From positions 7,485-71,484 of the IMG/VR virus record IMGVR_UViG_3300044511_000202: DNA of 64,000 nucleotides. One strand, given 5' to 3'. Positions 57,001 to 64,000 of this stretch are shown here, piece by piece. Made by a program: the position numbers. The DNA is from a virus. Each line of letters begins with the position of its first letter. Within the stretch, counting starts at the first letter, position 1.

Positions 57001-60000
57001 GCGCTCGTCAGAACCCTCGGGCACGTCCACCGAGACCAGCTCGATACCGGCCTCCAGCTCCCACGATTCCACGCTGCGCTCGCTCTGGAGGATGACGGGG
57101 AGATCCCAGTCGCAGGGGTTGAACGTGACGGTGCCCGTCGAGGAGACGCGCACGAGACCCAGCTCCGCGAGCCGGGTCACGAGAGCGCGGAGCGTCACGA
57201 CGTCGCCTCCGACGTGAGGCGAGCCTCGCGGCGAGCCTCGCGCTTGGCCTGGCGGACGAGCCACGCGGCGCGGGTGCGCCACGCCTTGGACGGCCTGATG
57301 TCGGGGCGGGGCTGCCCCCGGGGGGCGGGGTGCCGCCCCGCGGTTGGCCTCGCCGGGGGACGAGCGCGCGATCGCCCGGTCGGGGTGGTGCGCGCGCATC
57401 ATCTGGAGGTACTTGCTCCGCGCCACCCGCGCCACCCAGATATACGCGCGACGCGCACACCTCTTATAGCGGTAGCGGTTGTAACGCTTCACCACCTGCA
57501 CGGTGTGGGCCGGTTCGCCTCCGCCCACGCGCGCACCTCCTCGCGGCGGGCGGCGAGCTTCGCCTCCATCACCTCCTTGGGGTTGCGCACCACGTACGGG
57601 GTGATGACGGCGGCCGGCTGGTAGTTCGGGTGCGCGTCGCGCACCTCGGCGCCCTTGCGGCGGAGCTTGGCTTCAGCGTCGAGACGGAGGGCCTCGGCCA
57701 TGAGGGCCTCGGCGGTGGGGCGATCAGCGGTTTGCATGCTGGACTCCAGGAGGGTTGATGTTGCGCTACGGGGTAGCGGATGCGATGGCGGTGGTGATGG
57801 GCTCCCAGGCCCAGGTGGGCATGCGCACGTGCGTGTAGCCGCACTCCTGGAGGAGGCGGAGGGTGCGCAGGTCGTACGCGCGGGACACCTTGATCGTCGA
57901 GCCGGACTGGTGAAGAGCTTCCATGGTCGGGAGGTGGTGCAGTCTCCGTGCCGGCGCGCAACCGCGCGGCGGGTGGCGCGGTGGCGCGCCGATCGTGAAC
58001 GTCCGTTGACTCCGGTGGAGTGGCCGGCTGATCACGGCGCGACCCTCAGCGCGGCGATCCGGCGGACCATGCGGCGGTAGCGCGCCCAGAGCGCGCGGTC
58101 CACGAGGATCGCCGAGCCGAAGTAGGCGAGCGTGGCCACCCCGATCCCGCACGCGTACCAGGCCGCGAGGCCGAGCGGGATCGCGGCAAGCGCGGCCAGC
58201 GTGGCGAACCACCCGGCGATCACAGCGCCACCTCCTCGGCCTGCATGCGCGCCAGCTCGGCCAGCACGGCCTCGATCACCTCGGTGCGGTCCGCGGGGTT
58301 CGAGTTGTAGCTCGGAAACTCGCGTTCGGTGAGCGAGTCGTCGAGCCACGCCGTGAGCGCGGTGCGGACGGCCACACAACCTACGGCGGGGTGGTCGGAG
58401 TCGAGCATGTCCAGGACGTTCTCCGCCAGTGCGCGCACGTCCACTGTCACGGTAACAGGCTCGAAGTGGATCGCGACCTTGATCTTTTGTGACACGGTGT
58501 ACCTCCTACGTGTTGACGGTGCGGAAGGTGAGGTTGACGCGCTCGCCCGCGCGGGCGACCTTGTGGATCGCGTGCTGGTAGTCGATCTGCGAGCGGCCCT
58601 CCATCACCAGGAGATCACCGTGCTCTAGCGTGACGCGCCACTGGCACCGGTGATCGTCGCGGCGCCGGATGCGGAACACGCGCGAGGCCCCGAACGATAG
58701 CGAGGCGATGGTGGGCTCGGGGCCCAGCTCGGGCTCGTCGTCGGAGTGCCACGCGATGGAGTCGTGACCGTCGCGGTACAGGTTCGCCAGCACGCTGTTG
58801 TAGGCGACCGGCGTGGCGGCCTGCACGCGGTCGCGGAGGCGCGCCACGATCTCGGGCATCGGGGCGGGTTTGTGCCGCGCGCCGGAGTATGTGTACGAGC
58901 CATCGCCCATCCACGCCGTGAGCCGGGGCTGGAGGATCTCCCGGCCGTACAGGCGCACGGTGCGGCGCTCCCAGGCGATCGCGGCCACGAGATCTGCGAG
59001 AGCGATCTCTGCCGCGAACCCGCGCACGAGCGCGTGACCGTCGGGAAGGTTGACGAGGGGTACAGACATCACGAGTAGATCTCCGCGGCGAACGCCTCGA
59101 CGGCCTCGAACCCGACGCGGCGCTCCAGCTCGCCGAGCAGCGCCGTGCAGAGCGCATCTTGCGCCGGGTCATGCGCCAACCCGCGCGCCGCGATCATCAG
59201 CTCGCCCGTGGACAGGCTGGCGATGCGCTGCGCCAGAGTGGGGCGGGGGAGTTCGCCGGTGATTCGCTTCGTCGTGCTCATGGTCTGAGGTAGTGCAGCC
59301 GGCGGGCCAGCCGCAAGTGGTCGGTTTTCGGTAGCGGCACTGGCGAATGTCAACGGGCGTTCACGGGCCGGGTGTGACCTGGCGTTTACGCCGCTTGCGG
59401 TTCGTGGCCGTGGGGACGATGAGGATCCCGCACCACCTCAGGCCAGAAAACTGATCGAGGGTGCGAGGGTAGGTGTAGGCGCTCAACCCGCCCCGGGGAC
59501 CGATGTGCGCGTGCCAGGTCTCCAGGCGCGTGAGGATGCGGAGCGCGTTCTCGGGCGGGAGCCCGGGTACGTCCGGCTGGATGTACACCCAGGCGCCGTC
59601 GGTGGCGGTGCGGCGCACGTCCACGCTGTACTCTACCTCCCGCGCACCCGCGCACCCCTTGTCACACGCGTGGTTGAGGAGCGTGTCCAGTGCGCGGCGC
59701 TGGCGCTTGGACAGCGCCTCGACGGCGGGTGTGGATCCCTCGACGAACACGATCATGGTTCACCTGCTAACGTCATGGTCGGGGCTGGGAGCATCGAGCG
59801 TGCCGGTTCGCAAGTGCGCGAACACCCGCGGCGCGGGGCCGCGGGCGTGAACGCCGGTTCGCGGTCGGAGTGTAAACTGACCGCTAGACGATCGTGACGG
59901 CCTCCGTCGCCGGGGTGACGTCCGGCACCGGCACCGACATGATCTCGTCGAGGATCTGCTCCGATGTCTTCGGCGTGCCGTCCGCGTTGTCGATCGCGGC

Positions 60001-63000: not shown

Positions 63001-64000
63001 GAGCCACTCCGTGAGCGCGCGGCGGTAGCCTTCGACTCGGCGGGCGACGTAGGCGCGCTGGCGCTCGGGCGAGTCCACCCCACCGTAGTGCGCGAAGAGC
63101 GGGTCCCGCACCATGGTGCGCCACTCGCGCGTCACCTGGCGGAGAAACTCGGTCACCGTCGCGTCCGCCATCTGCTCGATCGTGCTCGCCATGGCTCTTC
63201 CGGGATGCAGCCCGCGTGCCGCGGGTAGGTGTTTGATCGGTGGTGCCGTGCCAGTGTCCCGTAGCGCGTTGTTCACGCTTCGGGTGTAGACCGCCGTTCA
63301 GATCCCGGCGGCGCGCATGCGGTCCTCCGCGCGAAAGAGCTGGCGGTACCACTTGTCGATCGTGGCCTGGGACTGGCCGAGCGCCTCGGCGCGGCGCACG
63401 CGCGCCTGGCAGTAGTGGTAGCGGGCGACGAGGGTGGCGAGCGAGTCAATCGTGTTCATCATGCCTCTCCTCTGGTGCAGCCCGCGTGCCGCGGGGCAAG
63501 TCGTCGTTTCCTGGTGGCCGGCGGGCCGTTCGTGAACGGTGGTTCTCAGCCGGGGTGTGAACGGTCGGCTACGCGGTGAGCGAGCGGATCAGCTCCCGCA
63601 TCTGCATGTAGGTGCGGATCTTGTGGGTACCGTTGTCGTTCAACTCGTACCCGCGCTCACCGTTCGCGAACGAACCGTCCGCTCCCGGGAGCCACGTGGA
63701 GCCCGTGATCGCGATCCCCGCGCGACGGAGCGCGGCGATCGAGTTGCGGTTGAAATCCTTGTGTGCGCTCGTCTTCGTCATGGTCAGAGGTAGTGCAGTC
63801 CGCGTGCCGCGGGTAAGTCGTCGTTTCCTGGTGGCCGGCGGGCCGTTCGTGAACGGTGGTTCTCAGCCGGGGCGTGAACGGTCGGCTACGCGGTGAGCGA
63901 GCGGATCAGCTCCCGCATCTGCATGTAGGTGCGGATCTTGTGGGTACCGTTGTCGTTCAACTCGTACCCGCGCTCACCGTTCGCGAACGAACCGTCCGCT

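Follow-up and report, generated by a model that had tools for sequence, protein, structure and literature searches.

Promoters read by the alternative sigma factor sigma-54 (RpoN) and switched on from upstream enhancers by bacterial enhancer-binding proteins (bEBPs) are textbook material: the consensus is TGGCACG-N4-TTGCW, sigma-54 is unable to start transcription without an ATP-driven activator, and the promoter needs an upstream site for that activator. Phage early genes, by comparison, normally depend on phage polymerases or on the housekeeping sigma-70 holoenzyme for their transcription. In Myxococcus xanthus the bEBP NmpR recognizes tandem dyads of the form GCGCA-N5-TGCGC near sigma-54 sites, and most NtrC-like regulators act at up to 100 bp from the sigma-54 site, as stated in the portion of the published account used here (PMC11841059). 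Here, we describe a repeated intergenic module in IMG/VR virus record IMGVR_UViG_3300044511_000202, a 71,484-bp sequence of an uncultured phage, of which the last 64 kb (bases 7485–71484, hereafter the window) was the stretch originally analysed. On the in silico evidence the modules are probably sigma-54 -24/-12 promoters, each with a dyad and a half-site as enhancer for one host bEBP, and would give rise to leaderless mRNAs.

The repeated module and its counterparts in bacterial genomes

The motif GGCMCG-N5-TGCW matches ten times in the window, always on the - strand, against 1.26 matches expected from dinucleotide shuffles (standard deviation 1.21), and none of 100 shuffles reached ten. Nine of these matches are the copies listed in an initial annotation of the window (54951, 57938, 59294, 59790, 61891, 62842, 63206, 63476, and 63794), all of which were recovered on the - strand; the tenth, at 6204, is accompanied by neither boxes nor an ATG and looks like a chance match. 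Nine is thus the right number for the window, but the true total is 16, since seven more modules lie beyond it in the first 7.4 kb of the record. Over the whole record there are 14 strict core matches, and a slightly relaxed core combined with a downstream ATG raises the count to 16 modules, none of them on the + strand; an extra relaxed match, also on the - strand, has no boxes and was judged to be chance.

Read along the - strand, a module consists of the stop codon of the previous gene, about 10 nt, GTTCAC, N9, (G)NGAAC-N4-GTTCAC, a spacer of 40–42 nt, GGCACG-N5-TGCA, 13–14 nt, and an ATG. The GG doublet is present in all 16 copies, within GGCACG (13), GGCCCG (two), or GGCACC (one), and the -12 element is TGCA in 13, TGCT in one, and TGAA in two. 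The GG and GC doublets stand 10 nt apart with no variation between modules, in keeping with the fixed distance reported initially. The base preceding GG is mostly C and not T, and CTGC takes the place of TTGC; the core nevertheless fits the sigma-54 consensus at ten specified positions and at the correct spacing. Downstream, the ATG follows the GC by exactly 13 nt in seven modules and by 14 nt in the other nine.

Upstream of the core, the proximal GTTCAC is perfect in 13 of 16 modules and carries one mismatch in two. The dyad had been described as present in every copy, which therefore holds with the exception of the copy at 63206 (GG 63220), where the proximal GTTCAC is absent and only GTGAAC is kept. 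In 13/16 modules the left half-site of the dyad has AAC as its last three bases, and the commonest form is GAGAAC (7/16) rather than the GTGAAC of the proposed consensus, which occurs once at that position. A second full or half dyad had been placed exactly 25 bp further upstream: the offset is right, but the element is a single direct-repeat half-site and not a second dyad, with GTTCAC perfect in ten modules, one mismatch away in two, and degenerate in four. The gap from GTTCAC to GG is 40–42 nt in 15 of the 16 modules. Ten copies are recent duplicates with a common spacer (CCAGGAAACGACGACTTAC) and six are divergent; mean spacer identity is 54% among the former and 31% among the latter, and the divergent copies keep boxes and distances despite this, so the initial observation that spacing rather than intervening sequence is conserved stands. 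Besides boxes and core, nothing is conserved in the intergenic space of ~125 bp. The consensus for IHF is WATCARNNNNTTR, and a site matching it at 7/9 positions or better occurs in 11 of the 16 phage spacers, ten of these sites being oriented with the module and ending 5–7 nt before GG. Among the spacers of the bacterial sites described below the proportion is 27%, against 11% in shuffles, with phage-like placement in six; this enrichment is modest and suggestive only.

The fixed ATG opens an open reading frame (ORF) of 52–307 aa in 12/16 modules, and one further copy runs off the record. In three others (GG 61905, 59804, and 54965) it opens a mini-ORF of 3–7 codons whose stop overlaps the following start codon (ATGA or GTGA), and at 61905 and 59804 that overlapping start opens a downstream ORF. 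The ATGA overlap at modules 5 and 6 suggests translational coupling from a leaderless start, and, judged by the ORFs opened, the fixed ATG is the codon used. It is preceded by GGAGAGG in some copies and by CTACCTCTGACC in others, so there is no conserved Shine–Dalgarno sequence. A sigma-54 start is expected about 11–14 nt downstream of the GC, with which an ATG fixed at 13–14 nt is consistent, and the cassette mRNAs would be leaderless or nearly so.

A six-frame Pfam search of the whole record found no Sigma54_DBD, Sigma54_activat, or Sigma70_r2 (PF04542) domain, which extends to the record the earlier statement that no sigma or bEBP gene is visible in the window. Between window positions 53000 and 64000 there is no sigma-70-type promoter, where shuffles expect 0.5.

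The annotation had proposed scanning candidate host genomes for the dyad together with the -24/-12 element. One genome per species (185,579 species) was searched with the pattern GAAC-N4-GTTCAC-N38-46-GGCACG-N5-TGCA, and the composite, at the same spacing, proved to be nearly confined to Myxococcota. Eight of the 12 loci found are in genomes with Myxococcota names (Polyangiaceae, three; Polyangia, Hyalangium, Kofleriaceae, Myxococcales, and Bradymonadia), a ninth bears the title “delta proteobacterium,” and three are low-GC loci without further features; a rough composition-based estimate gives fewer than one hit in Myxococcota by chance. With a looser pattern, five of the matched genomes yielded nine matches, eight of them with the full GTTCAC, and the reversed control yielded none; in 401 sampled Myxococcota genomes (two seed genomes included), there were 11 matches, spread over eight genomes, and one control match. 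A metagenome scan added 18 single sites, 16 of them in high-GC contigs and several with a second dyad or half-site 21–26 bp upstream.

Among the 21 distinct host sites, the gap is 40–43 nt in 17 (36–50 nt was allowed), and the ATG of a long ORF lies 13–15 nt after the GC in seven and 30–43 nt after it in ten, and was not found in four. Repeated dyad-type sites upstream of a -24/-12 core are the arrangement expected of a bEBP enhancer; 15/16 phage modules carry a dyad with a half-site, and the dyad recurs at 40–43 nt from GG in the 17 host sites. The host sites are chromosomal, with neighbors that include Ser/Thr kinases, YchF, and AcrB, and have no phage context; because the composite stands upstream of such genes, host factors should suffice to read it. 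The products of the genes behind the sites nearly all start with a signal peptide or lipobox and comprise outer membrane beta-barrel proteins, VWA lipoproteins, a serpin, a DUF2330 protein, a C25-like peptidase, and unknowns. All five composite-bearing Myxococcota genomes that were tested possess rpoN (Sigma54_DBD), and each encodes between 34 and 76 Sigma54_activat domains. The near-confinement of the composite to host genes of this phylum, with a core of sigma-54 consensus, points to a native regulatory architecture of Myxococcota that is readable without a phage factor. The initial proposal of sigma-54 promoters with upstream activator sites gains support both from these sites and from the presence of rpoN and dozens of bEBPs in the genomes that carry them.

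Two side observations concern the host loci. At eight of them (L034, L035, L036, L039, L008, L054, L056, and L060) a sigma-54-type promoter is followed by a long ORF starting 13–14 nt after the GC, and in these bacteria sigma-54 promoters may regularly give rise to leaderless mRNAs. At another, from a Polyangiaceae metagenome-assembled genome (L009), inverted composite promoters at 24–90 (-) and 550–616 (+) flank a 460-bp segment, and ~2 kb downstream on the same strand (2556–6992, +) lies the gene for a 1478-aa protein with Ser/Thr-kinase, GAF, sigma-54-activator, and HTH_8 domains, a candidate, unproven, for the cognate bEBP.

Proposed mechanism and competing explanations

In the mechanism that we propose, the sigma-54 holoenzyme would bind the -24/-12 core as a closed complex, and one host AAA+ bEBP, bound to the dyad (centered at about -74) and to the GTTCAC half-site (about -97), would drive its conversion to the open complex. 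The fixed ATG, or a position 1–3 nt before it, would be the start of transcription, yielding leaderless or near-leaderless cassette mRNAs. The short range at which most NtrC-like regulators act fits this geometry, although the box sequence differs from that of NmpR. The phage would have taken over the control architecture that its host, most likely a member of Myxococcota, uses for a native regulon of envelope and secreted proteins, and would have multiplied it 16 times across a block of ~12 kb of small, presumably early, genes; early timing is suggested by the content of the block and by the sufficiency of unmodified host machinery. What the sequence analysis shows is the motifs, their geometry and non-random occurrence, and the matching host promoters; RpoN dependence, bEBP binding, start site, early timing, host identity, and the gating of the cassettes by a physiological signal are inferred.

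Several points weigh against this reading. Ten of the 16 copies are recent duplicates and therefore not independent observations, and the -12 doublet is GC in 14/16 modules and GA in two, both outside the window. The exact composite is rare even within Myxococcota (8/401 sampled genomes), the distal direct GTTCAC occurs in only 5/21 host sites, and only 2/16 host loci (L009 and L044) have a bEBP gene no farther than 10 kb away, the two bEBPs being unlike in their DNA-binding ends. The phage host is most likely a member of Myxococcota, a placement drawn mainly from the motif itself, and the AlkB homologues indicate no particular phylum. Phages with a 41%-identical large terminase (TerL) have no such array, and neither has Myxococcus phage Mx4; there is no comparative support among phages, and footprinting across phages is therefore not possible. 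Finally, the block genes could be delayed-early instead of first-wave, because an activator-dependent sigma factor is risky for the genes that a phage needs first.

A bolder version of the proposal, which we regard as doubtful, is that the control region of a host envelope-protein regulon was captured and amplified so that one host bEBP, plausibly responsive to envelope perturbation such as phage DNA entry, fires the whole first wave through sigma-54 as leaderless mRNAs, with the 16 enhancers titrating the activator off host promoters.

That the modules serve host RNA polymerase redirected by an unrecognized phage factor (a novel sigma-like protein or appropriator), or an unrecognized phage polymerase, appears unlikely. 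The -24/-12 likeness would then be due to chance and the boxes would bind a phage regulator; yet ten specified positions fit the sigma-54 consensus at the correct spacing, and the composite also precedes bacterial chromosomal genes that have no phage context, so that host factors suffice. Some room for such a factor is left in that phage-specific transcription typically uses arrays of identical promoters, most genes of this phage have no family assignment, and the match of a 949-aa protein to a helicase is weak. Neither a Sigma70_r2 domain nor a T7-type RNA polymerase (PF00940) was found in the six-frame search, in which the PF00940 control itself matched nowhere and novel families could be missed.

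We consider it quite improbable that the core is a real sigma-54 promoter while the GTTCAC boxes are operators of a repressor, either a host LexA-like protein or one encoded by the phage. With positions of about -66 to -100, the boxes are clear of the promoter; an upstream activator site is required at any sigma-54 promoter, and the intergenic space offers no other conserved candidate. The thought of LexA, already raised as a caveat by the initial annotation, comes from the core TGAAC-N4-GTTCA, which resembles the M. xanthus LexA box (CTRHAMRYBYGTTCAGS), and one host site does precede a gene for a large PD-(D/E)XK nuclease; the host target genes, however, encode mostly envelope proteins and are not SOS genes. 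Upstream of lexA, all five composite-bearing Myxococcota genomes have boxes of the type GTTCAG(T/G) with left halves lacking GAAC, whereas the perfect phage boxes (13 proximal and 10 distal) are all GTTCAC and never GTTCAG. The caveat was therefore not borne out, and the identification of the boxes as LexA operators was rejected.

It is very improbable that the repeat is not a promoter but acts in the RNA, as a hairpin, a terminator, or a processing site, or is a selfish repeat between genes. This reading is suggested by the palindrome CCCGCG-GCA-CGCGGG in the main class and by the position of the modules directly after stop codons. Against it, predicted hairpins vary between copies and lie within 1.1 standard deviations of shuffles in 13/16 (|z| < 1.1), so that sequence is conserved and not pairing, terminator-like sites in window 53000–64000 are no more frequent than in shuffles, and the strict distances to ATG and upstream boxes, common to single-copy host sites before genes, fit a promoter, for which reasons the hairpin or terminator reading was rejected.

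Gene block, phage genome, and relatives

The - strand block of small genes that the modules serve extends from about position 4965 of the record down across the record ends to about window position 56968, and its part in record positions 1–4965 carries seven modules. Its genes are mostly small ORFans; recognizable products are an AlkB-like 2OG-Fe(II) oxygenase, a DUF2786/DUF7168 protein, and a phage zinc-finger protein. The module copies at the two record ends are nearly identical, and the record is therefore probably circularly permuted, with its break lying within a repeated cassette. The modules of the window and further features are listed in Table 1.

Table 1. Modules and other features of the window (window coordinates; GG, position of the -24 doublet)
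Feature	Position	Strand	Upstream boxes	Gap to GG (nt)	Core	GG	ATG and reading frame	Remarks
Small-gene block, window part	56968..64000	-						Served by modules
Module 1	63779..63879	-	GTTCAC (63879), GAGAAC-N4-GTTCAC (proximal box 63854)	40	GGCACGCGGACTGCA	63808	63781, 70-aa ORF	
Module 2	63460..63562	-	Module 1-type architecture	41		63490	63462, 54-aa ORF	Within the ~317-bp tandemly repeated cassette unit
Module 3	63190..63290	-	Degenerate enhancer, GTGAAC half-site only		GGCACGCGGGCTGCA	63220	63192, 85-aa ORF	
Module 4	62826..62928	-	GTTCAC, GCGAAC-N4-GTTCAC	41		62856	62828, 58-aa ORF	Spacer unlike main class
Module 5	61875..61977	-	Full boxes			61905	61877, 3-codon mini-ORF (61869-61877)	Stop overlaps next ATG (ATGA)
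Module 6	59774..59877	-	GTTTAC, GCGAAC-N4-GTTCAC	42	GGCACGCTCGATGCT	59804	7-codon mini-ORF (59756-59776)	Divergent; mini-ORF overlaps start of 131-aa gene 59361-59756
Module 7	59279..59379	-	GGTCAC, GTGAAC-N4-GTTGAC	40	GGCCCGCCGGCTGCA	59308	59281, 70-aa ORF	Divergent; then AlkB-like gene 58506-59072
Module 8	57922..58025	-	GTCAAC-N4-GTTCAC, distal box degenerate	42	GGCACGGAGACTGCA	57952	57924, 52-aa ORF	Divergent
Module 9	54936..55037	-	GTTCAC, GTCAAC-N4-GTTCAC	41	GGCCCGTCGAGTGCA	54965	7-codon mini-ORF	Outlier position
Cassette repeat at record end	63557-64000							~317-bp unit
TerL	55040-56971	+						643 aa
Packaging gene	54372-54821	+						
DUF5681 gene	53639-54166							Small-terminase-like region
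Stretch without called ORF	~52950-53640							~700 bp
Family A DNA polymerase	34860-37514	-						884 aa

A module and a phrog_27490 gene of 70 aa make up a cassette of ~317 bp that forms a tandem repeat at the end of the record and occurs again at its start, and a contig from another sequencing run joins window position 63873 back to 63557; this indicates either that the copy number varies or that the assembly broke within the repeat. Contigs of four other runs contribute near-identical pieces and one tandem-repeat joint, and are uninformative on expression. At the head of the block, outside the window, the divergent intergenic region at record positions 4965–5075 holds TTGCGC-N17-TACGGA, a pair that weakly resembles a sigma-70 promoter and lies 6 nt upstream of the ATG that opens the first small gene; this could be a leaderless immediate-early start independent of sigma-54. 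Module 9 sits between two packaging genes of the + strand, one of them that for TerL, and points antisense to both; its transcript would either run antisense over the region that resembles a small terminase or serve the replication genes of the - strand as a long leader.

The record has a G+C content of ~69%, and there are no tRNA genes in the window. By its encoded proteins, which include a DUF3383 sheath-like protein, baseplate J, a DNA polymerase of family A, and a primase-helicase of the Prim-Pol/AAA_25 type, the phage looks like a myovirus. An endolysin with PG_binding_1/Amidase_2 domains is also encoded, and no clear spanin was found in the lysis region. The polymerase shows a match to a DnaJ-type CXXCXGXG zinc finger (residues 371–432) that scores below the Pfam cut-off. 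Between the replication and packaging modules, the stretch without a called ORF is by eye of lower GC than its flanks, contains the short direct repeats ATTCAAACGGGATGGA and GATTCAGTCGACCCC, two copies each, and could be an origin or packaging site.

Among 50,697 phage records, the best cultured-phage match of TerL over 90% of the protein is Myxococcus phage Mx4 (26% identity, E 2e-18), a weak pointer to Myxococcota that is independent of the motif; neither the endolysin (Atlas) nor the cluster names of TerL gave information on the host. Near-identical DNA was not found among cultured phages, nor did the metagenome scan disclose a second phage with a module array, and the three-box pattern gave only low-GC chance matches in viral contigs. 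Relatives in the TerL family (eight IMG/VR loci, of which five whole records were searched) lack an array and show no repeated promoter motif of another kind near TerL, and the motif is absent from the 12 kb of a primase relative (39% identity). Since it is missing both from phages with 41%-identical TerL and from Mx4, the array seems to be a recent acquisition of this phage lineage. Some TerL relatives (P0124–P0127, P0141, P0146, and P0214; 740–811 aa) have a precomputed PF10544 hit, mostly with PF13455 in addition; the window TerL has no precomputed Pfam hit.

Comparison with known systems

No description of a phage early regulon run by sigma-54 was found in the literature searched (supplements excluded), and none is mentioned in the available portions of a review of M. 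xanthus phages and of a 2026 preprint on myxobacterial viruses. What would be new here, and what has no precedent that we could find, is an array of sigma-54 promoters that runs a phage gene block, was copied from a host envelope regulon, and is built for leaderless mRNAs. If our reading is correct, the phage gene programme would be conditional on one host signalling protein, because sigma-54 needs an ATP-driven activator; this would be a new type of host dependency, and with it a new route to resistance or host-range limits. It would also give a handle on an uncharacterized envelope-protein regulon of Myxococcota and its activator, with 16 aligned examples of the binding site, and would imply that sigma-54 promoters can be built to yield leaderless mRNAs. 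Should the bolder capture-and-amplification version hold, this would be the first phage early programme on sigma-54, with infection sensed via a host stress activator.

Other phages use repeated motifs of comparable layout. The stoperators of Cluster A actinobacteriophages and the start-associated sequences of Cluster K are likewise present in many oriented copies in short intergenic gaps before gene starts, but these are repressor sites or translation-start motifs in hosts without sigma-54, whereas the module described here has a full -24/-12 core and enhancer-like boxes common to host promoters. Middle promoters of T4, which depend on sigma appropriation by MotA/AsiA, and the promoters of phage-encoded sigma factors resemble the array in that one temporal block of phage genes has a repeated class of promoters to itself; they need phage-encoded factors, whereas no such factor is detectable here and the promoter class appears native to the host.

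A link between sigma-54 and phages is known from the PspF phage-shock response of enterobacteria, a sigma-54/bEBP system tied to perturbation of the envelope by phage. The envelope is a common theme, since the host genes behind the matching promoters encode envelope proteins, but the Psp system is a host defence and repair regulon and not a means of phage gene expression, and neither a PspF-like site nor a psp gene was seen here, so that the likeness is an analogy only.

Closest in design are the NtrC-family sigma-54 promoters, glnAp2 among them, which like the modules lack sigma-70 elements; RpoN and the AAA+ activator, supplied there by the cell, would here be supplied by the host. The GG-N10-GC core and tandem dyad-type sites within ~100 bp are likewise features of the NmpR regulon as far as it is described in the portion used of PMC11841059, but the phage box (G)NGAAC-N4-GTTCAC matches no bEBP site that we found, and that of NmpR is GCGCA-N5-TGCGC. 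In place of tandem dyads, the phage module has one dyad and one half-site held rigidly 40–42 nt from the -24 element, with an ATG 13–14 nt after the GC in what appears to be a leaderless design, and it is present in 16 copies in the genome of a lytic-type phage rather than in a cellular regulon.

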